Positions 848-18,590 of a DNA stretch of 18,590 bases are shown here, piece by piece. The position numbers and the translations under genes are program-made. Below the pieces are notes generated by a model. The model ran no database searches. It had not been told where the DNA came from and was given only the letters and a program-made list of their open reading frames with translations. Source of the stretch: a virus (taxonomy: Duplodnaviria > Heunggongvirae > Uroviricota > Caudoviricetes); the IMG/VR virus record IMGVR_UViG_2703718776_000018; one strand, given 5' to 3'. Positions within the stretch are counted from its first letter, which is position 1, and each line of letters opens with the position of its first letter.

Positions 848-3835
848 ATGAGCTTAAGCGATCAGGTGGTAATGGCCACCAGCATAGAAACGCTGATCGA
901 GCTGCTAAAGAACCTGCCCGATTATGGGCGGGTTTCGTATGTGGTGACAGCGAAGGGAGACGAGGTAAAAACAGCGTTTGATATCGTCGATGCCTCAGCT
1001 ATTTTGGTATCCAATACTCTGGATGGGAAAATTAATCCTGACTATCCCCAGGAACTTCAGCCGCGCGACCGGACCCGCGCATCCAGCCTTCTTCAGGTTA
1101 ACCAGATATCCAAAGATTTGCGGCCTGCTCAGCTTACCGATTCCGGATTATCCAGCCATGGCGCACCGATAATTGGTGAGGACAATGCAGTTGAGTCAGG
1201 TAATGGACGTACCATGGGGATCATTAAAGCCTATCAGGACGGTAATGCGGATCGGTATCGGGAGTACCTGATTGAACATGCGACCGAATTCGGCATACGT
1301 ACTGAAAAGGTTGAATCAATGACGGCTCCGGTACTGGTGCGCCGCCGGTTAACGAAGGTTGACCGCGTTCAGTTTGCCAAGGACTCAAATATTTCTGATC
1401 TTCAGGAAATGGCAGCCAGTGAAAAGGCTTTTGTTGATGCCGACAGCATAACACCGGCGATGATGGCGCTGTTTAATCCGTCAGAAAGCGGAGATCTGCT
1501 TAGCCGCAGTAATGACGCGTTTATTCGCGGATTTATGACGCAAGTTGGTGCCACACAGGCGGCTGGCCTTGTAACTGAAGATGGGCGACCAACACGGCAA
1601 CTTGTAGACCGTATACAAAACGCGATCTTTGCCAAGGCATATAAGGATGCGCGCCTGGTAAGGATGGTTGCAGAAGAACCTGATCCGGATATGCGTAATG
1701 TTCTGACGGCGCTTAATGCGGCAGCCAATGATTTTGTCCAGATGCAGGCTTTATCAGGAGAAGCGCACAAGCAGGCTGTGACAACTATTGTTGATGGCAT
1801 TGAGACAGCGGATAGCCTCGATAAAAAGGCGCTGGCGGCATTGAAAGATGCGGTAGACCTGGTAAGGCAATCGAAGGAGTCAGGCCAGCATATTACCGAT
1901 GTTATTGCTCAGGGGGATATGTTCAGCGAAATGGCCCCGGAAGTGAAAGCACTCGCGTTGTTCATCGTCGCGAATAACCGTAGCGCGAAGCGTATGGCCA
2001 CCGCCTTTAAGTTGATGGCTCAACGTATCAATGATGAGTTACAGCACCAGGGCCAGGCGCTGGGGGATATGTTTGGCGGCGGCGATGTGTCGTTACAGGA
2101 TATCCTTCGCCAGGTATCTCAGGAACTGGAAAACGAAGGTATGCAAGGGATATCCGGCGGTCTTTTCGAGTCAGCTTCCGGCGGTAGTTACAACGGTGTT
2201 GCTCCATATACCAGTTTGCTATTACATCGAGCATCCGGCATCAAAGACATTATTCATCTGATCAGGCTGCTTTCCCGTAAAGATCCCCAGGATGAACAGC
2301 TTGTACAAGTGCTTGCGCATTTTGTTCGAATGCCTGTTGCCGACGTGAAAAAATGGTGCCGATTATTCGGTATCAGCAATTCGTTACTTCGCGGCTTGTT
2401 AAATCACGCATCCTCCCTTGGGCGCGATGGCTTTGACGAGATAGCGCAGGCGATAAAAAACGGAGATATGCCACCAGCTATTGACTGGTTTTCCATTCGC
2501 CCAACCAGGGTGAAAGCATTCCTTAGCGCGGCGCATTCGGCATCACCATTGGCAGAAATGGTTCAGAGGTTGTCGCTCATATTCACAGACCATACCGCGT
2601 TGGGTGATCTGACTCTGGACGAGATGAAAGAAGCCTCCATTCAGTGGGCCGATCAACAAAATGAGGTTAACTCAGACTTCTTGCCAGCATTCAGGAAGGC
2701 CGTTAGTAAAGCGGATGATGCCCGTGGAATTCTGAAGGCATTTAAGGCATTGCAAAGTCGTGTTAATAAACATGTCGGTGATATCGATGGGGTAACGGCG
2801 GAAGGCCGGGATATCCTTAAAGAGCACGGCATAACGCCAGAGTTTATTGATGAGATCAGGACTGATATGCAGCGTGAGGTCGTATCGTCCCTGCAAATCG
2901 TAGCCAGAGCGTTGGCGGATGCTAATCCGAAGAGTGCGGCCATTGTTAACCGGGTTATTGGTGATATTGAAGCATCGGAGGGCATGGGGGCGCTGAAACT
3001 CTTCCTTTCGCGAGCGTTTAATCCTAACGGCAATATTCTCCCTGGCATTATTGGTGAGGCTAAAAAGTATGTCAGTGAAGAAGAACTTGAGCAGCTTGAC
3101 CAACTACTTAAGCGATTCTCATATAACCCGCAGACACGCTGGCAAATGAATCAGCGAAGTATGGGTTCGGTCCACGAGAAAGTGTTATCTGCCATGAACA
3201 GTGCGATCGCAAACTCATCCGTATCTGAAGAAAAAGCTCTTGAGTGGGCCGACTCTTTTATCACAGAAGAAGTGGAAGAAGCCCGCGCTGGACAGAATGG
3301 TGGGATAGACCTGCGCAAGGAACTTGCTGATATTTATCGCCTGACCGGCGGGAAAATATCGACCTTATCAAAGGTAGTTCACCACCAGGGAAGGGCATAT
3401 GCAAATCTAAATGGTGTTGTTGCTGTCAATTTGAACGATAAAAATGCAAGTGCACTGTGGCACGAGCTGGGTCATCATCTTGAGTACAGTAACCCTGGTT
3501 TGTTAGAGAAAGCCCGGTCATTCCTGAAGGCCAATGTTGAAGGGGATAAGCCATCTTTCGTTAATATCGGTGGGCGTGGCAAGCCTGAATGGTGCTTCAG
3601 ATCTCGATTGAGTAATATTTATATGGCGAAGGTATACCCGCCAGCCTCAGTAAGTAACACCGGGAAAATTCGGCAGAAATCACCGACTATTTCCAAAACG
3701 TCAGCAACGGAAGTATTCTCTATGGCTCTTCAGTTGTATCATGACAAAGAGGCCGCTGCCGCATCACTGATGAATGGTGACGGATTGCTGGAACTGTTAT
3801 TAGGTGTGGCAAAGGAGCTAAATAATGCAGATTAA
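848..3835 (+). CDS. Large 995-aa protein with an N-terminal ParB/Srx-like motif region and a C-terminal HExxH zincin-like motif; polyvalent-protein-like, possibly a virion-associated anti-defence protein (P1 Ddr-like?)
   Basis: Long uninterrupted ORF. Residues 63-73 read NPDYPQELQPR and residues ~116-127 read SGNGRTMGIIKA, with spacing reminiscent of the ParB N-terminal domain. HELGHH lies at residues 872-877 (nt 3461-3478). In-frame stop 4 codons upstream (833-835); the only SD-like sequence (TAAGG, 833-837) is about 10 nt from the ATG. Confidence 0.8.
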   Translation: MSLSDQVVMATSIETLIELLKNLPDYGRVSYVVTAKGDEVKTAFDIVDASAILVSNTLDGKINPDYPQELQPRDRTRASSLLQVNQISKDLRPAQLTDSGLSSHGAPIIGEDNAVESGNGRTMGIIKAYQDGNADRYREYLIEHATEFGIRTEKVESMTAPVLVRRRLTKVDRVQFAKDSNISDLQEMAASEKAFVDADSITPAMMALFNPSESGDLLSRSNDAFIRGFMTQVGATQAAGLVTEDGRPTRQLVDRIQNAIFAKAYKDARLVRMVAEEPDPDMRNVLTALNAAANDFVQMQALSGEAHKQAVTTIVDGIETADSLDKKALAALKDAVDLVRQSKESGQHITDVIAQGDMFSEMAPEVKALALFIVANNRSAKRMATAFKLMAQRINDELQHQGQALGDMFGGGDVSLQDILRQVSQELENEGMQGISGGLFESASGGSYNGVAPYTSLLLHRASGIKDIIHLIRLLSRKDPQDEQLVQVLAHFVRMPVADVKKWCRLFGISNSLLRGLLNHASSLGRDGFDEIAQAIKNGDMPPAIDWFSIRPTRVKAFLSAAHSASPLAEMVQRLSLIFTDHTALGDLTLDEMKEASIQWADQQNEVNSDFLPAFRKAVSKADDARGILKAFKALQSRVNKHVGDIDGVTAEGRDILKEHGITPEFIDEIRTDMQREVVSSLQIVARALADANPKSAAIVNRVIGDIEASEGMGALKLFLSRAFNPNGNILPGIIGEAKKYVSEEELEQLDQLLKRFSYNPQTRWQMNQRSMGSVHEKVLSAMNSAIANSSVSEEKALEWADSFITEEVEEARAGQNGGIDLRKELADIYRLTGGKISTLSKVVHHQGRAYANLNGVVAVNLNDKNASALWHELGHHLEYSNPGLLEKARSFLKANVEGDKPSFVNIGGRGKPEWCFRSRLSNIYMAKVYPPASVSNTGKIRQKSPTISKTSATEVFSMALQLYHDKEAAAASLMNGDGLLELLLGVAKELNNAD

Positions 3836-4145
3836 AATCGCAGCGCCATTAGGCGGAGATGCCATTATCGAATTTGATGATAATGAAGAAGTTTCCGGGC
3901 GTTTAAGCATTATCTCCGGTGACATTACCGAGGACATGATCGCTGAAGCCATAGCTGGGGCAAATCCCAATAGCTATATGGGATTCGTTAACACCCTTGA
4001 TGCTCCCGCAAGTGATGTTCTCCGAACGCTGCATCTTTACGCTGGCTGGTTTGTTGATTGGCCAGCAGTAGATGGTGGCGATGAGGATGATGATGACGAT
4101 GAAGAGGTTTTTAGTGATGAAACAGTAAACCAACTCTTGTATTGA
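3825..4145 (+). CDS. Small, very acidic 106-aa protein translationally coupled to the 995-aa gene
   Basis: Strong SD AAGGAG 7 nt upstream of the ATG at 3825. Overlaps the upstream stop by 11 nt. About 25 Asp/Glu against 4 basic residues, with a C-terminal run DGGDEDDDDDEEVFSDE. Confidence 0.7.
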   Translation: MQIKIAAPLGGDAIIEFDDNEEVSGRLSIISGDITEDMIAEAIAGANPNSYMGFVNTLDAPASDVLRTLHLYAGWFVDWPAVDGGDEDDDDDEEVFSDETVNQLLY

Positions 4146-4274
4146 CAGGAATTGGCATAGAATTGATTGTTCAAATTTCATCCATCACATAGACGACTTC
4201 ATGTTATTTGCCTGATAATTATGGCCTTAATAACCCATGTATATCTTTTGGGTTATATTCTTATCTTTAACAAG

Positions 4275-4320
4275 GTTATAAGAGCGACAATGATAAATTT
4301 ATCACTATCGCTCTTATAAC
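4275..4320. repeat. 46-bp near-perfect palindrome: 13-bp perfect arms (GTTATAAGAGCGA / TCGCTCTTATAAC) enclosing a 14-bp perfect inner palindrome TGATAAATTTATCA; possible bidirectional terminator or protein-binding site
   Basis: Read directly from the sequence; only 2 mismatched positions across 46 bp. Sits between the convergent 106-aa (+) and 95-aa (-) genes. Confidence 0.8.
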
Positions 4321-4348
4321 TCTTTGTTAGCTATAGCTTTAAACAAAT

Positions 4349-4636
4349 TTAGTTTTGAGGCAATGCAACAAAAGTCAGCTCTTGATCTTTGATTAATGCT
4401 TTTGTTTGTTTGGATGTAATTCCCACTTTAGTTTTTACATCATTGTGGAGCTTCTTATACGCTTTTATTTCATCTGCTGTATATCGGAAGCCATTTGCAC
4501 TGTTACTGGACAGTTGAAGTGCGATTACGTCATCACTGACACCCGCATCGCTTAGCTTAGCTATGCGGGTAATAGTGTGGCCTGCGCGAGTGTTTGGGGT
4601 GGATATTTTGTCTAAGAAATTGTTCAGTTTTTCCAT
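4349..4636 (-). CDS. Hypothetical 95-aa protein in an AT-rich cassette; possible HTH-like segment
   Basis: ATG at 4636 with SD GAGGT 8 nt upstream on the reverse strand. Bounded by the palindrome at 4275-4320 and the terminator at 4857-4884. Local GC is clearly lower than the flanks. The segment TITRIAKLSDAGVSDDVIALQL loosely resembles an Xre-type HTH. Confidence 0.65.
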   Translation of the reverse strand: MEKLNNFLDKISTPNTRAGHTITRIAKLSDAGVSDDVIALQLSSNSANGFRYTADEIKAYKKLHNDVKTKVGITSKQTKALIKDQELTFVALPQN

Positions 4637-4856
4637 TGTTTACAACCTCTTACTTGAGTTTATTGCCAGTAGAATTGCCACTATTCTTTTGCCTCAACGA
4701 ATCACAATGTACTGGAATAAGAAACTATGAGCAATACTTACGCTTTGCGAATACAGAAGATGAATAATCAACTTATTACTAAAATGTTAATAATATTATT
4801 CTGTTACATAGTGTTCGCTATAACAATCGGGAGTTGAATGCTAATTCAATAAATAA

Positions 4857-4884
4857 AGAACCCGCCAATTGGCGGGTTCTTTTT
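4857..4884 (-). terminator. Rho-independent terminator (10-bp stem AGAACCCGCC/GGCGGGTTCT, loop AATT) with U-rich tracts on both sides
   Basis: Perfect GC-rich hairpin directly after the stop of the 262-aa reverse-strand gene (stop 4883-4885); followed by TTTATTTATT on the reverse strand and TTTTT on the forward strand. Confidence 0.8.
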
Positions 4885-5671
4885 AATCACTTTCCACTTC
4901 TCCCGTGGTGTTTTCTTGCAGTTCTGTTAATGCAGCACGACATAGGTTCCGGGCATTGGCTATAGCCACACTTTTGACTTCATCCGTCATCGTGCAGGTA
5001 ATGTACTGATCTAGTTCTTCATCGCGGATGATGCTTTTGCCAATCAGAAACTGTATTTGCCAGAGCAGATCGGCATCCATAATCAGAATTTCTGCCGGGC
5101 CTTCAGGGCCAGCCGGGAAGGAAACATAAGACTGTTTGCCCAGGCCGACAACTCGACAACTTGCTTCAAGAATTGCGCGCTTGAGGTCTGACTTTATAAC
5201 GGAAACAGGTTGATTTTCACCAGTGATTACGCCGTTGACATGGAAAGGCATGTAGCTTGAAATTCGCTCTACTTTCCATACGCCAGCAAGCGATCCTTCA
5301 TGCAGCACAATGGGGGTAACCGCGAGTTTCATCTCACCATATAACTGCTGGCAGATAGCTGGATTGCTGAATACATCCAAAGGTTCACACTCAAACAGCG
5401 GCGCAATCTGCATGAGGTCCATCATGGTCATCCCTGGGGTACGAGCAGTAATGAATCTGCGCATACCAGTATCCATTGCGCTCCAGATTGCTACACCATG
5501 CTTTTTGCTCACTTCTTCAGTAAAGCCAAGGTGGCACATGATGGTTTTTTCGATAGCCAGATCAGAGATAGAAACCGTTTCGCCTGGCACTCCATCATTA
5601 TTGACGGTCACTTCGACACTCTGGCCATTACGTAGGCGGTATTGAATGGTTTTAGTATTTTGTGCTGTCAT
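4883..5671 (-). CDS. Hypothetical 262-aa protein downstream of ssb; function unknown
   Basis: Uninterrupted ORF with ATG at 5671, ending at a strong terminator. No motif recognisable by eye. Confidence 0.75.
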   Translation of the reverse strand: MTAQNTKTIQYRLRNGQSVEVTVNNDGVPGETVSISDLAIEKTIMCHLGFTEEVSKKHGVAIWSAMDTGMRRFITARTPGMTMMDLMQIAPLFECEPLDVFSNPAICQQLYGEMKLAVTPIVLHEGSLAGVWKVERISSYMPFHVNGVITGENQPVSVIKSDLKRAILEASCRVVGLGKQSYVSFPAGPEGPAEILIMDADLLWQIQFLIGKSIIRDEELDQYITCTMTDEVKSVAIANARNLCRAALTELQENTTGEVESD

Positions 5672-5868
5672 AGTCTTTTCTCTGCTTAAAAACTGATGTA
5701 TTGCGCCTTCAGGTTGGTTAGGAATGTTTTCCCACCAGCGAAAGCAATATCTCGGGGTGTTCTATTCGTTAAAAGCGCGTGCCATTGCCAACTTTGGCGT
5801 TTTTGAGCGAGTTCGTGCTTTTGTCGGCGTCTGGACCACCGCTTTTTTTTCAGTCGTTTTTTACACAT

Positions 5869-6357
5869 TCAAAACGGAATATCGTCGTCAAAGTCCATTG
5901 GAGGTTCGTTATTAGCGTTGCTCTGAGGTTTACCGCCACCACTGTATTGCTGGTGGTTTTGAGGTTGGTTTGATTGCCCCCAGCCATTTGTGGACTGTGA
6001 ATCGTCGCGACGAGCGCCGATCATTTGCATGGTGCCGCCCTGGCTGACGATAATTTCCGTCGTGTAACGTTCTACACCGGCGTCATCTGTCCACTTACGG
6101 GTTTTAAGTTTCCCTTCGATGTAGACCTGAGAACCTTTTCGTAAATACTCACTCGCAATTTCAGCAAGTTTTCCGAACAAAACGACTTTATGCCATTCTG
6201 TTTGCTCTTTCTGTTGGCCCGTTTGCTTGTCGCGCCATGATTCATTCGTTGCGATGCTGAGTCTTCCGACCGCGCCGCCATTTGGTATATACCTGATCTC
6301 CGGGTCTTGCCCCAGGGTGCCAATCAGGATGACTTTGTTTACACCGCGTTGTGCCAC
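5869..6357 (-). CDS. ssb: Single-stranded DNA-binding protein (162 aa), GTG start
   Basis: N-terminus [20 protein letters not shown].. is a typical SSB OB-fold start. Gly/Gln-rich linker and the canonical acidic tail [14 protein letters not shown] 7 nt before the GTG at 6357. Confidence 0.92.
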
Positions 6358-6376: not shown

Positions 6377-6393
6377 AAAATAATTAGAGCAAC
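6377..6393 (-). promoter_or_regulatory. Candidate C1-repressor-type operator (reverse strand reads GTTGCTCTAATTATTTT) over the presumed ssb promoter
   Basis: 14/17 match to the P1 C1 operator consensus ATTGCTCTAATAAATTT as I recall it, including a perfect TTGCTCTAAT core. Lies 20-36 nt upstream of the ssb GTG. Confidence 0.4.
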
Positions 6394-6526
6394 AATGTAT
6401 ATCTTTGAAACGTAGCTAACAAGTGATTTGCATTATCCTGTGCCTTCTAAAGGGATCGAGTCAGTCGGTATTGGCTGTGAATGGGTGTTTGTCCTGGAGC
6501 GTAAAAAATTCGCTTATGAGGTCTTT

Positions 6527-7084
6527 ATGAAGGGAAAAACAGCCGCAGGAGGCGGTGCAATTTGCGCTATCGCGGTGATGATTACCATCGTGATGGGTAA
6601 TGGCAATGTGCGAACCAACCAGGCGGGGCTTGAGCTGATTGGTAACGCTGAAGGTTGCCGACGTGATCCATACATGTGCCCGGCGGGGGTATGGACTGAC
6701 GGGATCGGTAATACACACGGGGTAACGCCGGGTGTGCGAAAAACCGACCAGCAAATCGCCGCTGATTGGGAAAAGAATATCCTGATCGCTGAACGCTGTA
6801 TTAATCAGCACTTTCGGGGCAAAGACATGCCCGATAATGCCTTCAGTGCAATGACAAGCGCGGCATTCAATATGGGATGCAATAGCTTACGGACCTACTA
6901 CAGCAAAGCGCGAGGCATGCGAGTCGAAACGTCCATCCACAAGTGGGCGCAGAAAGGGGAATGGGTGAATATGTGTAACCATCTCCCTGATTTTGTGAAC
7001 AGTAACGGCGTGCCCCTGCGAGGTTTAAAGATTCGCCGTGAAAAAGAACGCCAGCTTTGCCTGACGGGGCTGATCAATGAATAA
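6527..7084 (+). CDS. lyz: SAR (signal-arrest-release) endolysin, T4-lysozyme family, 185 aa
   Basis: Starts MKGKTAAGGGAICAIAVMITIVMGNG (Gly/Ala-rich SAR domain with Cys13), then NAEGCRRDPYMCPAGVWTDGIGNTHG carrying the Glu/Asp/Thr catalytic residues. Matches my recollection of P1 Lyz. SD GAGG before the ATG at 6527; the ORF-track start at 6428 is a TTG over-extension. Confidence 0.95.
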   Translation: MKGKTAAGGGAICAIAVMITIVMGNGNVRTNQAGLELIGNAEGCRRDPYMCPAGVWTDGIGNTHGVTPGVRKTDQQIAADWEKNILIAERCINQHFRGKDMPDNAFSAMTSAAFNMGCNSLRTYYSKARGMRVETSIHKWAQKGEWVNMCNHLPDFVNSNGVPLRGLKIRREKERQLCLTGLINE

Positions 7085-10172: not shown

Positions 10173-13100
10173 ATGAACAAGCTATCTATGGGGGTGTTTC
10201 GCTGTTCAAGTGTCAGCGAAATATTGAAATACATTAGGGCAATAACATCTCACCGAGCGCCGATTAAATACGGCGTGGAAAAGGTGGAAGGCAAAAGCTA
10301 TGACCGACTGCGCCGGGAGGCGAATCAGAAGGCGATAGATTTGCTTAATTCACTGGTGGACGGCGCGACACTGACAGATGAACAGCGCCAGATCCTGGCT
10401 GGGTACACCGGTGAAGGCGGCATTGGCGGGTCCGTCTCCGAATATTACACACCAAAGCCGATCGCTGAAGGTGTCTGGGAGATCATGAAGCTCTACGGCG
10501 CGGACGTAGGTAACACTCTGGAACCATCGGCGGGCACCGGCGTTTTTAATGAGACAAAACCGGTTGGTACGGTGATGACTGCGACTGAGATCAGCAGTGT
10601 TTCCGGTCGTATAAACCAGTTGTTACACCCGGAAGACAGCGTACAGATTTCCCCGTTCGAACAGCTGGCTATAAGCACACCTAACGATTCATTCGACCAT
10701 GTTGTGGGTAACGTTCCGTTCGGCGGTCGTGATAACACACGCAACATCGATAAGCCTTACGCAGAAGAAACGGACATGGGTTCTTACTTCATGCTCCGCA
10801 TGCTGGACAAGATAAAGCCAGGCGGATTCATGTGCGTGATTGTGCCGCCGTCCATTGTTTCAGGTTCAAACATGAAGCGGTTACGCCTGCGCCTATCACG
10901 GAAAGCAGAATTTCTTGGTGCCCACCGCTTGCCTACCGGTACTTTTGACGCAAACGGGACCAGTACGGTCGTAGATGTGGTGCTGATGCGCAAACATCCG
11001 GCAGAGATGGCTGAGAAAATCCCCCTGGTGGATGAAAGCACTCTTGAATCAGCAAATGTGCTTTGGCCAACGTTTATTTCTGGCAAGTGGTTTGAAAAGG
11101 ATGGCCGCCGGTTTGTTCATGGCACCCAAGAAAAGGGCTTCCGGGGGCGTATTGAGGTTCGTGCCGACGGTCAGATTGATAACCAGGCTCTTAAAGCGAA
11201 GCTGATTCATCGTTTCGAAAGCCGTATCGACTGGTCTTTGCTCGATATGGCTGAACCGTCACCGACCGCAGACGTTGTTGGTGAAGGGGAAATGCGCCTG
11301 ATTAATGGCGTATGGCAAAAATATGCTGGTGGTCGCTGGATTGAAGCTGATGCCGGGAAGGAACTTAAGATCGATGCTGCCAGTTATGGCGCGGATAGCT
11401 GGGAGGCTCTTCAGCGTAACCTGACTACAACAGAAGGCCGTCTCGGCATGACATTTACCCAGATGGCAAATGTCCGCGATAAGTACACCACATCAATCAG
11501 CGACGATATGGTGCAGCTGGTGGACTGGATTAACAGCCAGCCTGAAAAATACCGTGAACGCTTGTATCGCGGGGCGATGATTGGCCGGATGTTAATTGAA
11601 TATCAGGACATGAAGGCCGCCGGGCATAGTGCTGAACAAATCGAACAGCAGCGCCTTTCTCTGGTATCCCGTTTGCAGGCAGAGATTGACCGTTTTGGTA
11701 ACCCCGGTCGCGGTCCGATAGCGAAATTATCGGGGAGCGGTGCGCGCGCCTGGTTTGCTTTCCGTGGTGCAATTAAGCTGGATGGCACTATTTCTGACGA
11801 GCTGACAGGAAAACTGGTTACGCATGATTCCAGCGCCAGTTATGACTCCACCAGCTATCAGGACACCCTGCGTTATCTCTACAGTGATCTCACTCGCGAT
11901 CCAATCCAGCTCGATGATTTCCGCCTTGCGTTTACCGGCGAACTGCCAGCCAGTGATGATGAGTTGCTTAATTTATTGGCCAGCACCCCTGGCATTGCGG
12001 TTTCACCGTATGGCGGGATTGTTCCGTTCGCCCGCGCCACCAGCGGCGACATTAACGAGATAGTGGCTCCAAAACAGGAATTCCTCGCCACGCTCCCCGA
12101 CGGTCCAGTAAAGAACAACGTCCTTAATCAGCTGGCAGCGATCGAAGAGAAGCGCATCAAGACGCCAGCAGAGAATATCCGCTTTAAGCTCAATAGCCGT
12201 TGGTTCGACCGCTCCGTCATTCTGGAGTTTTTGCAGGAAAACGGCTATCCGGATCTGCGCTATGTGCAGTCAGTGCAGCTGGAAGGCGACGAAATGGTTT
12301 CTGACACCTATCACGGTGGTGATGGTCTGTTCGTCGGGCACCGATACGGTGTCGTCCAGCGCAAGGATAAAGAAACAGGCGAGATCCGCTACGAGTGGGA
12401 CCGTAAATCAGGTGAAAACGCGACCGGGTTCCCGGCACAACTGGAAAAGTATCTCAATGGTGCGCGTATCGGTGGCAAAGATAGCGCGACGGCGAACGGC
12501 TACCGCGAGCAGATGGCACTGCTTGAGGACCAGTTCAATAAGTGGATCAAGACGCACGATCGCTACGATGAGCTGGTTGCCAAATACAACGATGTGTTCA
12601 ATAGCAATATCCCGTATGAACACTCTGGCGATCCGCTTGGGTTGAAGGGATTAAGCGGTAAGCGCCAGCCATTTGATTACCAGAATAGCGAGGTGCGCCG
12701 ACTGTCCGAAGATGGGCGCGGCATCCTGGGCTTCGGCACCGGGCTGGGTAAAACCACGACCGCGCTGGCGCTTGAGGCGTTCAACTATGAGAACGGTCGC
12801 TCCACCCGTACTGCTTATGTAGTGCCTAAAGCAGTGCTGGAAAACTGGTATTACGAAGCAAAAGAGTTCCTGAGTGAAGAGGCATTCAGTAACTACCTGT
12901 TCGTCGGTCTTGATGTGCTGATGGATGGCGATCAGATTCGCCAGGTGCCGGTGCTCGATGAGAACGGTAAACCTGTTCTTGGTACTGATGGCACTCCAGT
13001 TATGCGCGATGCTCTTAAGCTGGCAGATGAAGCCACTATCACGGCGCGGATGAACGCGATCCCGCACTCAAATTACCGTGCAGTCGTGTTTACCAAAGAA

Positions 13101-17414: not shown

Positions 17415-17659
17415 AAAAGCGATACTACACAGTAAAGCATGGGACGCTACGAGCATTACAAGAGTTTGCTGACAAGCATAACGTTGAGGTGCGCAGGGAA
17501 GGGGGAAGTAAAGCTCTGCGCATGTACCGTCCGGACGGGAAATGGCGGACGGTCGTCGATTTCAAAACTAACAGCGTTCCCCAGGGCGTCCGCGACCGGG
17601 CATTCGAAGAATGGGAACAGATCATCATAGATAACGCATTGCTCCTGAATGCGGATTGA
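17411..17659 (+). CDS. lxc: Lxc/Bof-like small protein (82 aa), TTG start overlapping the ulx stop
   Basis: TTG at 17411 with SD GGAGA 7 nt upstream. Overlap TTGA with the ulx stop. Followed by a terminator. Size and position consistent with P1 lxc (bof) from memory. Confidence 0.5.
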   Translation: MKKRYYTVKHGTLRALQEFADKHNVEVRREGGSKALRMYRPDGKWRTVVDFKTNSVPQGVRDRAFEEWEQIIIDNALLLNAD

Positions 17660-17669
17660 TTTATATATC

Positions 17670-17699
17670 GGGCAGTTGTAGCTGCCCGTTAAATTTTTG
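17670..17699 (+). terminator. Rho-independent terminator (stem CGGGCAG/CTGCCCG, loop TTGTAG, then TTAAATTTTT) between convergent genes
   Basis: Seen in sequence, immediately after the lxc-like stop and before the stop of the reverse-strand 196-aa gene. Confidence 0.75.
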
Positions 17700-17710
17700 C
17701 CGCTCTTCAA

Positions 17711-18301
17711 TTACACTATATCTTTTACTATAGAATTAGCATCCTCCAGTACGCCAATTTCTTCGATGCGTTTTTTTATTATTAATCGATTTGAAGCAAT
17801 GATTGTGGACCATCTTGTTTCCCAAGCTCTATAAGCATGCCACGAATAACCTAATCTCATTTCTTTGCTCATGTTGGACATTGAGTATTCAACGGCGTCT
17901 AAATATTCATTTTCATACTTAGTTCCACCAATTTCTAAAAGGCTGCCGAAATATATAAGCCATTTTGCAAGCTGCTCGTATTGCTCCCAAGCACCACTCT
18001 CTCTTGTTAAATCTCTTTTTTGTTTTATTATTCTCTTGAAAAAATCAACTACTTGTCCGTCATTCCAGTCGAAACCCTCAGATATAATCGAGGAGGTTAT
18101 TTGATAGAATGAATCTTCTAATCTAAGGTATTCATCCTTATAGTTGAAAGTGCCTGATAAAACTCTTTTTATACTTTGTCTGGCTCTTGCTATGACGCCT
18201 TCAATTAACATTATGTTAATGCTCAATCTCTTAAAGAAAGAGTCTATTTCGGTGTTGTCAATTACTCGTATTCCAAAACAATAAAAATAATAATCCTTCA
18301 T
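17711..18301 (-). CDS. Hypothetical 196-aa protein in an AT-rich island next to IS1; function unknown
   Basis: Uninterrupted ORF with ATG at 18301. Region 17700-18374 is markedly AT-rich compared with the darB/ulx side. No SD-like sequence stronger than AAGT upstream. Confidence 0.7.
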   Translation of the reverse strand: MKDYYFYCFGIRVIDNTEIDSFFKRLSINIMLIEGVIARARQSIKRVLSGTFNYKDEYLRLEDSFYQITSSIISEGFDWNDGQVVDFFKRIIKQKRDLTRESGAWEQYEQLAKWLIYFGSLLEIGGTKYENEYLDAVEYSMSNMSKEMRLGYSWHAYRAWETRWSTIIASNRLIIKKRIEEIGVLEDANSIVKDIV

Positions 18302-18331
18302 ATCTTGACTTACTTCACTGCGAGAGATGAA

Positions 18332-18348
18332 AAATATATTAGAGCACA
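18332..18348 (-). promoter_or_regulatory. Candidate C1-repressor-type operator (reverse strand reads TGTGCTCTAATATATTT) upstream of the 196-aa gene
   Basis: 14/17 match to the recalled consensus ATTGCTCTAATAAATTT with a perfect TGCTCTAATA core. Lies 31-47 nt upstream of the ATG at 18301. Confidence 0.4.
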
Positions 18349-18374
18349 GAGCGTTACCTTTCGAGAATATTTTG

Positions 18375-18590
18375 TAATCATTTATGGTAATGACTCCAAC
18401 TTATTGATAGAGTTTTATGTTCAGATAATGCCCGATGACTTTGTCATGCAGCTCCACCGATTTTGAGAACGACAGCGACTTCCGTCACAGCCGTGCCAGG
18501 TGCTGCCTCAGATTCAGGTTATGCCGCTCAATTCGCTGCGTATATCGCTTGCTGATTACGTGCAGCTTTCCCTTCAGGCGGGATTCATAC
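18375..18590 (-). mobile_element. IS1, partial: terminal inverted repeat and 3' portion of the transposase gene; the element continues beyond the window end
   Basis: From 18375 the forward strand reads GGTAATGACTCCAACTTATTGATAG.., the IS1 terminal repeat. The reverse complement through 18590 matches the IS1 3' region I recall (..CTGCATGACAAAGTCATCGGGCATTATCTGAACATAAAAC..). Confidence 0.9.
18390..18590 (-). CDS. insB: IS1 transposase InsB, C-terminal part (runs off the window end)
   Basis: Reverse-strand frame ends ..[17 protein letters not shown] with the stop at 18390-18392, the characteristic InsB C-terminus. Confidence 0.85.

Follow-up and report, generated by a model that had tools for sequence, protein, structure and literature searches.

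In a P1-like phage-plasmid (IMG/VR record IMGVR_UViG_2703718776_000018; the whole stretch of 18,590 nucleotides that was analysed is called the window), an AT-rich cassette between hxr and an isaB-like gene carries a single 95-codon gene, orf95, which is a real cargo gene of the moron type. On balance, we think it probable that positions 4146-4853 were acquired horizontally as a self-contained moron, with its own promoter and a gene for an HTH-like regulator. The absence of the cassette from relatives, the adjacency of its flanking genes in SJ46, its deviant composition, the lack of C1 and late-promoter sites, and the moron positions of its homologs elsewhere together support the cargo reading. 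The features of the region are as follows.

3825-4145, plus strand: hxr (106 aa; named after the P1 annotation; matches phrog_2292 at 7e-59), left neighbour of the cassette
4146-4853, no strand: AT-rich accessory cassette (moron), reaching from the hxr stop codon to the backbone terminator
4230-4256, no strand: second hairpin (ATAACCCA...TGGGTTAT), followed by a U-rich tract on the plus strand
4275-4320, no strand: near-perfect palindrome of 46 nt, 28 nt downstream of the orf95 stop codon
4349-4636, minus strand: orf95 (95 aa), from an uncharacterised protein family of mobile genetic elements (MGEs), predicted four-helix HTH-like fold
4645-4650, minus strand: Shine-Dalgarno (SD) sequence AAGAGG, as read from the minus strand
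4662-4683, no strand: direct repeat ATTGCCA(G/C)TA in two copies, candidate operator at chance level
4706-4734, minus strand: weak sigma-70-like promoter candidate TTGCTC-17-TACATT, the best placed
4727-4837, plus strand: hydrophobic 36-aa ORF, divergent from orf95, with a weak ribosome-binding site
4823-4851, minus strand: marginal candidate for a sigma-32-type promoter, ATTGAAT-N12-CCCGATTG, at the cassette's right edge
4855-4882, no strand: bidirectional intrinsic terminator predicted from its hairpin, right-hand boundary of the cassette
4883-5671, minus strand: uninterrupted isaB/isaA-like gene (262 aa; matches phrog_2326 at 4e-147), right neighbour

In P1-like phage-plasmids, the interval from hxr to ssb is a highly variable, non-essential cargo slot, and the acquired unit would be one of its occupants. 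In P1, the genes hxr, isaA, isaB, ssb, and ddrB are all non-essential (PMC10695390). The left neighbour, hxr, is the final gene of the dar anti-restriction operon, and ddrB also precedes the cassette. The P1 version of the isaB/isaA-like gene is split by IS1, the cargo of the interval in that genome; P7 and JL22 carry an nmpC/ompD porin gene, vB_EcoM-673R5 a dGTPase-like gene, and 813R1 other genes. In SJ46, hxr and isaA (isaB-like) are separated by a gap of about 30 bp with the terminator and without the cassette. The cassette resembles the other Punavirus cargo in its location in this interval and in a presence that varies among otherwise 98%-identical backbones, but its content differs, it has neither a transposase nor terminal inverted repeats, and its gene has no assigned function.

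A single AT-rich cassette with one 95-aa gene had been proposed from the letters of the sequence, and this description stands: the GC content is 34.6% for 4146-4853 and 49.5% for the whole window. Among 708-nt segments of the window, 0.7% are as low in GC, and all of these lie either in the cassette or at 17.5-18.6 kb, in another AT-rich island. The further claim that orf95 is lower in GC than its neighbours survived in part. Its GC is 39.9%, and its GC3 (0.375) is below that of ddrB, the isaB-like gene, ssb, and lyz (0.49, 0.46, 0.51, and 0.55, respectively), whereas the GC3 of hxr is similarly low (0.383). Apart from its own palindromes, the cassette has no similarity to other parts of the window.

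A comparison of presence and absence across P1-like genomes, suggested with the original prediction, located the cassette in 15 of 483 P1-like plasmids (about 3%, identity at least 98.8%) and in phage Ro157c2YLVW; it was not found in P1, P7, SJ46, or 97% of the P1-like plasmids. It is present in one of about 20 Punavirus phage records. Among 5,426 complete E. coli genomes, 25 carry it, in every case on a plasmid of 90–103 kb and never on the chromosome. The plasmid carriers are mostly Shiga-toxin-producing E. coli (STEC) of serogroups O111, O157, and O103, and E. albertii. The copy in E. coli O111:H- 11128 (NC_013370.1) is 100% identical to that of the window. The combination that would have spoken against the moron idea (flank-like GC together with universal conservation and a known function) was not found; a rare gene of deviant composition lies between genes that are adjacent in SJ46.

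Other forms of mobile DNA describe the cassette less well. An origin as an IS or MITE was rejected, as no inverted repeat joins the ends of 4146-4853 and no transposase ORF is present. The clean insertion of a transposable element was rejected as well, the left junction being instead a diverged 3′ end of hxr: cassette carriers share an allele of the hxr C-terminus that differs from those of SJ46 and P1. In integron gene cassettes, the attC site lies downstream of the ORF and has a core of the form RYYYAAC ... GTTRRRY. Read on either strand, the palindrome downstream of orf95 opens with GTTATAA and closes with TTATAAC, which is the wrong order and does not fit the attC core.

Phage morons such as bor and lom of lambda, and those of HK97-type phages, have been reviewed as a concept (PMC3594210). 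Like them, orf95 is a single gene absent from close relatives, placed between genes that are adjacent elsewhere, lower in GC, and flanked by terminator-like hairpins; it also points in the direction opposite to the dar operon, and neither the C1 nor the late circuit connects to it. It differs in that its promoter is at candidate level and its right-hand terminator is borrowed from the backbone. orf95 is an ordinary moron, and the result for the window is neat but not unexpected: one rare allele of the hxr-ssb interval, enriched in STEC and E. albertii, is a self-contained unit with a single gene.

The structured elements on both sides of orf95, which had been proposed as insulators, are present, although the one on the right is not part of the cargo. 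On the left, the palindrome has arms at 4275-4300 and 4295-4320 with 92% complementarity, and RNA from either strand folds at −37 to −44 kcal/mol (z of −7 to −8); UCUUUGUU comes next on the plus strand. The palindrome is likely to act as a transcription stop between the convergent transcripts of hxr (dar operon) and orf95. On the right, the terminator hairpin has 12–14 bp, T-runs on both strands, and z of about −6. Its homolog in the hxr/isaA intergenic region of SJ46 reads CCCGCCAGTCGGCGGG and is followed by a T-run, and since SJ46 lacks the cassette, 4855-4882 is a backbone element and not cargo. Transcripts of the dar operon and isaB, which converge on orf95, would then be blocked by the palindrome and second hairpin at one end and by the backbone terminator at the other. 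Rfam gave only sub-threshold matches, due to the hairpins.

An SD sequence of good quality had also been predicted, and it is there, with 9 nt from the GAGG to the ATG. The region further upstream is less clear. orf95 may have a promoter of its own within the 217 bp upstream, controlled by neither the P1 C1 repressor nor the Lpa late system. No operator for C1 (ATTGCTCTAATAAATTT, 17 bp) occurs in the cassette within three mismatches; only three sites in the window are within that limit, at 6377, 10227, and 18332. No P1 late promoter was recognized upstream of orf95, where the best minus-strand match to the consensus (AAGTgACTT-N4-TAnAAT, derived from five annotated P1 late promoters) reached 8/12. 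Among sigma-70 candidates in the upstream region, none scored above shuffled sequence, and the best-placed one (4706-4734) was not significant at 8.5 bits, with shuffles giving best scores of 8.3 ± 1.7.

The ATTGCCA repeat, which had been pointed out as one helical turn apart, is real and lies at the positions given for it (4662-4668 and 4674-4680), 12 bp from start to start and 26–44 bp upstream of the ATG, but it occurs at chance level and is polymorphic. Dinucleotide shuffles of the 217-nt upstream region contained a 7-mer repeat in 25% of cases and a 9/10 repeat in 13%, and position 6 of both copies varies among carriers and close relatives. The window as a whole has seven copies of ATTGCCA against 4.1 ± 1.9 expected, so the motif is not enriched. 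As an operator common to the family of orf95, it was rejected, since none of the 22 other family genes examined has it upstream.

That family is the more useful by-product of the analysis. It has no name in Pfam, NCBIfam, or PHROGs and is uncharacterised; orf95 is an added member. A word-indexed search returned three clusters, as for an orphan gene, and the full HMMER scan 121 (E down to 3e-19, 35–58% identity), so the orf95 protein is not an orphan; another figure for the family, whose protein is small and strongly conserved, is more than 200 clusters. Its motifs are well conserved, with nine residues invariant (K10, R17, G19, R24, A39, Q41, S46, Y52, and D66). Carriers include proteobacterial prophages, ICEs, megaplasmids, and genomic islands. 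In phages (a P22-like prophage of Photorhabdus, IMG/VR phage contigs), the gene separates the lysis genes from the terminase and is encoded on the opposite strand, and it is also found at the edges of ICEs and defence islands. An unnamed family with an HTH-like prediction thus occupies moron positions in prophages and the margins of ICEs and islands.

Structure prediction gave some support to an HTH-like segment, as originally suggested. The AlphaFold2 (AF2) model, made with 112 sequences (pLDDT 78.6 overall, 94–97 in the core), is a compact fold of four helices with an HTH-like arrangement, and the median net charge of the family core is +4. However, no HTH profile in Pfam or NCBIfam matched the orf95 protein or any of 68 family members. 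A PDB profile search gave nothing below E = 0.03, and Foldseek against PDB and BFVD gave nothing below E = 0.1. The protein, with its predicted four-helix domain and positively charged core, would most likely be a small nucleic-acid-binding regulator. Small HTH domains of the sigma-70 region 4, DeoR-SorC N-terminal, LuxR-FixJ, and Mor-C types differ from the family, which has no sequence-profile match, an 8-residue loop between helices 2 and 3, and a putative recognition helix that is near-invariant across very different, unrelated elements. Such invariance is unusual for MGE repressors, and the target could therefore be a conserved host protein rather than DNA.

A different reading of the family, possible if improbable, is that it belongs to the host heat-shock (sigma-32/RpoH) regulon, with the window copy transcribed from the degenerate site at 4851-4823 on the minus strand. 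In E. coli, the sigma-32 promoter consensus is CTTGAAA-N13-14-CCCCATnT. The motif TTGAAA-N13/14-CCCCATnT, at 11/13 or better, was found in 11 of 36 non-redundant family upstream regions (about 30%), always 55–115 nt before the ATG and with spacers unrelated in sequence, compared with 1.8% of dinucleotide shuffles and 1.3% of locus-wide 250-nt windows. When scored with a PWM made from 17 family promoters, the orf95 site falls in the top 0.006% of window positions, and the upstream region would be expected to contain about 0.05 such hits. However, it scores 9.4 bits where family sites score 14.8–23.3, matches the consensus at 10/13 positions with a spacer of 12 nt, and lies 213 nt upstream of the gene. 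The enterobacterial relatives in Photorhabdus (locus L014) and Providencia (L011) also lack the motif at the usual place. The family thus shares with the RpoH regulon a motif at a fixed distance in roughly a third of its genes, but its members are MGE cargo and not chaperones or proteases, and the match in the window is marginal.

With a sigma-32 promoter, the orf95 protein would be made under host proteotoxic stress. It is tentatively conceivable that the family as a whole is under sigma-32, with its invariant surface recognizing one conserved host target (a site on DNA, or a protein, for example RNA polymerase) and coupling proteotoxic stress to the behaviour of the element. Such coupling could act on induction, on transfer, or on the control of neighbouring defence or anti-defence cargo, and a real promoter link would offer a way into how mobile elements read host stress.

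Variation among carriers counts against the favoured reading. orf95 could instead be the remnant of a larger module that has lost its upstream partner and current function and persists by linkage, which we consider quite unlikely. Directly upstream, the closest relatives (56–57% identity) and the ICE members all carry a small gene on the same strand, of which the window has no counterpart and the cassette no remnant; among eight carriers, one has a frameshift and another replaces the invariant glycine (G19D), and the protein departs from the consensus at several positions that are 85–96% conserved in the family. Four of the five substitutions in orf95 among these carriers are non-synonymous (4:1), which together with the frameshift and G19D suggests that orf95 may be under weak selection in P1-like plasmids, although substitutions are too few for an estimate of selection. 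The decay reading is further countered by the intactness of orf95 in 14 of the 16 sequenced carriers that were examined and, at 99% or more, in 25 E. coli genomes, by the presence of all nine family-invariant residues, and by the many family members that are stand-alone genes with their own promoter. A conserved partner was also rejected for the family: only about 7 of 25 loci have a Sigma70_r4-like gene (119–145 aa) ahead of the family gene, and by hhalign this gene has no relation to the family.

The same neighbourhoods could indicate an Aca-like regulator of anti-defence or defence-associated cargo, an HTH gene controlling the variable genes next to it, with the window copy placed beside the dar operon after ddrB and hxr; we regard this as doubtful, and less likely again. 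In the closest relatives, the small genes directly upstream (88–165 aa) are unrelated to each other and the gene downstream is the conserved one, and the ICE and Xanthomonas members adjoin nSTAND3, Hachiman (HamA/HamB), and Gabija-like genes. The family is similar to Aca regulators in being a small conserved HTH-like gene on MGEs that often lies downstream of variable small genes. However, it has no homology to known Aca proteins or to their HTH Pfam families, several of the upstream partners resemble HTH proteins themselves, and many members, the window copy included, stand alone without such a partner. PADLOC matched none of orf95, hxr, the isaB-like gene, and the small ORFs, and there is no link to a CRISPR or defence phenotype; co-location in variable regions is expected of any cargo.

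It is highly improbable that the true cargo is the 36-aa peptide (a small membrane protein or type I toxin, for instance), for which orf95 or its 5′ UTR would serve as a regulator or antisense. The C-terminal half of the peptide is hydrophobic, its ORF is divergent from orf95 and would be antisense to a long orf95 leader, and positions 4720-4853 are invariant among eight carriers, but the ribosome-binding site is weak, no family match was obtained for the peptide, and Rfam gave no toxin or antitoxin match at threshold. AT-rich DNA often contains hydrophobic ORFs by chance, and this one is probably such a case; a conserved antisense counterpart upstream of other family members was looked for and not found. 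That the orf95 protein is a packaging-related DNA-binding protein similar to a small terminase hardly deserves credence: the family gene adjoins terminase genes in phages, but always on the strand opposite to the terminase operon and in phages that each have their own TerS, the rmsd of the structural match is 7.5 Å, family members are also frequent on ICEs and islands without packaging genes, and P1 has PacA.

A few matches were set aside. The giant repeat proteins P0088, P0097, P0110, P0113, and P0120, which matched over part of the domain, are generic repeat proteins with spurious matches to many Pfam families, and a weak PHROG match to a virion RNA polymerase (E = 0.033) was likewise rejected. 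In six family loci, a motif CTTGTTAGG lies about 100–130 nt upstream, a modest enrichment (6 vs 2.8 ± 1.6).

The AT-rich cassette at 4146–4853, which holds the 95-aa gene orf95, is a genuine, independently acquired accessory gene that forms a self-contained unit: a moron, at a locus already known to vary among P1-like phage-plasmids. It is rare, it sits at a variable locus, and it appears to have no link to the C1 or late circuits, in line with the original prediction of an acquired cargo gene, whose described features were all located where stated. Punavirus (P1-like) phages and phage-plasmids are 97–99% identical to the window region, and its genes were named from the annotations of P1, SJ46 and P7 and from PHROGs. 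The region under study comprises the 737 bp from the hxr stop codon to the isaB-like stop codon, and the features of the locus are:

848–3835, plus strand, ddrB
3825–4145, plus strand, hxr, last gene of the dar anti-restriction operon
4230–4256, second hairpin
4275–4300 and 4295–4320, arms of the palindrome, 92% complementary
4349–4636, minus strand, orf95
4855–4882, both strands, bidirectional terminator hairpin with a 12–14-bp GC-rich stem and T-runs on both strands
4883–5671, minus strand, isaB-like gene in uninterrupted form (in P1 split by IS1 into isaB and isaA)
5869–6357, minus strand, ssb
6428–7084, plus strand, lyz

The cassette is rare among its relatives. In phage records it occurs only in vB_EcoM-Ro157c2YLVW, and it is absent from P1, P7, SJ46, 813R1, 673R5, JL22 and RCS47. 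PLSDB holds 15 plasmids with the cassette (at least 98.8% identity, 92–102 kb, all non-mobilizable) vs 483 with the adjacent ddrB-hxr backbone. Among complete E. coli genomes it was found in 25 of 5,426, never on the chromosome; these carriers are mostly STEC O111:H8/H-, O157:H7 and O103:H2, and E. albertii plasmids carry it as well. The interval it occupies is a cargo slot, filled elsewhere by IS1 (P1), an nmpC/ompD porin (P7, JL22), a dGTPase-like gene (673R5) or other ORFs (813R1). Between hxr and ssb, the dGTPase-like gene of vB_EcoM-673R5 (L077, 1840–3769) is split into two CDSs and accompanied by a 122-aa ORF, and P7 (L004, 2571–3686) has the nmpC porin. A genome-wide CRISPRi study found hxr, isaA, isaB, ssb and ddrB to be non-essential for P1 (PMC10695390), and a survey of phage-plasmids reported that resistance-gene insertions in P1-like elements adjoin gene families including SSB and lysozyme (PMC9600943). 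A second presence/absence polymorphism lies within the same variable interval: in the window, ~200 bp (5672–5868) separate the isaB-like gene from ssb, and it is there that phage Ro157c2YLVW and several plasmids have a 678-bp DUF2829 gene.

The left junction offers no clean insertion point. In cassette carriers the last ~40 nt of hxr (~14 residues) are a diverged allele (…EEVFSDETVNQLLY vs …DDFGDHVDQIVY), which points to replacement through recombination with a less closely related element, not to transposition; neither terminal inverted repeats, a transposase nor an attC-like core was found in 4146–4853. Hxr itself is annotated in P1 as 'possible repressor; homolog of Xre'; the window protein has no Pfam or NCBIfam HTH match, its sole match being PHROG 2292 (function not assigned).

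The low GC of the cassette was borne out by calculation (34.6% vs 49.5% for the whole window); equally long windows with GC this low make up 0.7% and are located here or in an island at ~17.5–18.6 kb. The GC3 of the gene itself, 0.375, is below that of ddrB (0.49), the isaB-like gene (0.46), ssb (0.51) and lyz (0.55); backbone hxr is similarly low (0.383). A Shine-Dalgarno sequence, AAGAGG, lies 9 nt ahead of the ATG. The structured elements said to insulate the gene exist on both sides, and the palindrome and the 4230–4256 hairpin fold far above shuffles on either strand (z −7 to −8), but the terminator does not belong to the cargo, because SJ46, without the cassette, has a homologous hairpin (CCCGCCAGTCGGCGGG, then a T-run) within the ~30 bp separating its hxr and isaA. 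U-rich tracts follow the 4230–4256 hairpin and the palindrome on the plus strand, reading from hxr, and the two structures may stop dar-operon transcription before it enters orf95 antisense. Rfam gave no match at gathering thresholds. The ATTGCCA direct repeat is present at 4662 and 4674 (12-bp spacing, 26–44 bp before the ATG) but is at chance level: when the 217 nt upstream of the gene are dinucleotide-shuffled, 25% of the shuffles contain an exact 7-mer repeat with a spacing of 8–25 bp and 13% a 9/10 repeat. Position 6 is mutated in both copies among close relatives (4667 C>A, 4679 C>T). A 36-aa hydrophobic ORF with a weak ribosome-binding site (4727–4837, plus strand) has no homologues in the libraries, the upstream regions of other family genes contain no equivalent, and it is most likely a chance ORF. 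Inside codons 20–34 of orf95 lies a 22-nt imperfect inverted repeat (4534–4577; core CCCGCAT...ATGCGGG).

The orf95 protein has no Pfam, PHROG, NCBIfam or PADLOC family match, and a fast word-indexed search (3 clusters) suggested an orphan gene. Searching 1.84 billion representatives exhaustively with HMMER ruled this out, returning 121 clusters at E ≤1e-3 and 61 at ≤1e-10, nearly all of 90–135 aa and 35–58% identity. A profile search added 211 clusters, annotated 'hypothetical' throughout, from Photorhabdus, Xenorhabdus, Providencia, Vibrio, Pseudomonas, Xanthomonas, Nitrosomonas, Paraburkholderia and others; five giant repeat proteins among the family matches were spurious. The product adds a new member to a widespread but unnamed family of small proteins borne on mobile elements. 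Conservation is striking for a protein this small (consensus …EKVSSPASRAGSxVERxGxMLEEGVxxxVIALQMTKNSxNxxxYTxxDVxAxxKLYxDSKTKVxITAKQxRALIxDQ), with K10, R17, G19, R24, A39, S46, Y52 and D66 (window numbering) invariant and Q41 99% conserved. The window protein keeps all nine and is off-consensus at several positions that are 85–96% conserved. Eight carriers differ at 13 cassette sites, including E2A, P14T, G19D, a silent change at K27 and S75A in orf95. Two variants look damaging: G19D, which alters the invariant glycine in E. albertii p2RM9973 (L020, NZ_CP043272.1), and a 1-nt insertion at ~4431 that truncates the gene in CP027590 (L023, NZ_CP027590.1). The variants as a whole are too few to measure selection, but constraint in the P1-like lineage may be weak.

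The original prediction also hinted at an HTH-like regulator. AlphaFold2 performed poorly without an alignment (pLDDT 62.6), and with 112 homologues reached 78.6 (94–97 for residues 20–60), modelling four helices (14–30, 35–45, 54–68, 75–86). These helices and the family core's median net charge of +4 make the fold plausible at the level of class, not of a named HTH family, and Foldseek found no match below E = 0.1 in PDB or BFVD. An HTH-like fold is probable, with moderate support from the model, and DNA binding is putative. The role of the protein, with function, promoter and target all inferred, is most likely that of a small regulator that binds nucleic acids and is produced independently of the lytic programme of P1.

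Contexts of family genes are diverse, with mobile elements in every case and no neighbour conserved across the whole family. A P22-like prophage of Photorhabdus and phage contigs from IMG/VR have the gene by itself on the opposite strand. There it is flanked by the lysis cassette (holin, endolysin and Rz genes) on one side and TerS/TerL/portal on the other, or it neighbours a Nu1-like TerS with TerL; an opposite-strand spot between lysis and terminase genes is a textbook moron position. In Tn4371-like ICEs, a small Sigma70_r4-like gene precedes it where the T4SS genes (TrbI, DUF2274) end, and the pair adjoins a 1,408-aa nSTAND3 protein. The same pair is part of a conserved arrangement in Xanthomonas hortorum (L015/L040, 7591–12817) and a Halomonas MAG (L030), where a Sigma70_r4-like gene (119–145 aa) and the family gene are followed by Hachiman HamA/HamB, with a Gabija-like UvrD/OLD pair nearby in Xanthomonas. 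The remaining loci have integrases, IS elements or toxin-antitoxin genes alongside. An hhalign comparison showed the Sigma70_r4-like partner and the family to be unrelated. In the relatives nearest to the window protein (56–57% identity), the family gene is directly preceded on its own strand by a small gene, but these small genes are of three unrelated kinds, and no remnant of such a partner was found in the cassette.

No C1 operator occurs in the cassette at ≤3 mismatches. The best match upstream of orf95 to a P1 late-promoter consensus (AAGTgACTT-N4-TAnAAT, built from five annotated P1 late promoters) is 8/12, and the best-placed candidate of a sigma-70 PWM scan, TTGCTC-17-TACATT (4734–4706, minus strand), does not score above shuffled sequence. 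The gene therefore appears unconnected to P1 immunity and late circuits, which fits a moron, its promoter being putative. The window has three C1-operator-like sites at this threshold: 6377, the known ssb operator; a 17-mer, ATTGCCCTAATGTATTT, at 10227–10243 (minus strand, 3 mismatches) in a GC dip at ~10.05–10.35 kb, probably a known P1 operator; and 18332–18348 (3 mismatches), within a second AT-rich island (17500–18590, GC 0.31–0.37).

Many family genes are preceded by a motif, C/G-TTGAAA-N13/14-CCCCATaT, that we assign to sigma-32 (RpoH) on the basis of the E. coli consensus, CTTGAAA-N13-14-CCCCATnT. It scores ≥11/13 in 11 of 36 non-redundant 250-nt upstream regions (~30%) vs 1.8% of dinucleotide shuffles and 1.3% of the remaining 250-nt windows from these loci, and ≥12 in 4 of 36 vs 0.2–0.3% in controls. 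Always 55–115 nt ahead of the ATG, confined to the sense strand and with spacers unrelated in sequence, the sites (L016, L026, L029, L033, L036, L037, L045, L049, L051, L057, L061, L073) look like a functional promoter, and expression in the wider family may be stress-inducible. Enterobacterial relatives have no such motif at the usual place. The window candidate, ATTGAAT-N12-CCCGATTG (4851–4823), lies at the extreme end of the cassette, 213 nt away from the ATG, and is marginal (9.4 bits vs 14.8–23.3 for training sites; ~0.05 such matches expected in the upstream region). The cassette is ordinary as a kind of element and gains modest interest because its family is uncharacterised and the sigma-32 link is testable. 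A CTTGTTAGG-like motif occurs 98–132 nt upstream of the ATG in L031, L033, L041 and L057, and more weakly in L029 and L045, 10–45 nt upstream of the sigma-32-like -35 box, with modest enrichment (6 vs 2.8 ± 1.6). The upstream regions of the window and the Photorhabdus locus L014 share CCGATTGTTA.
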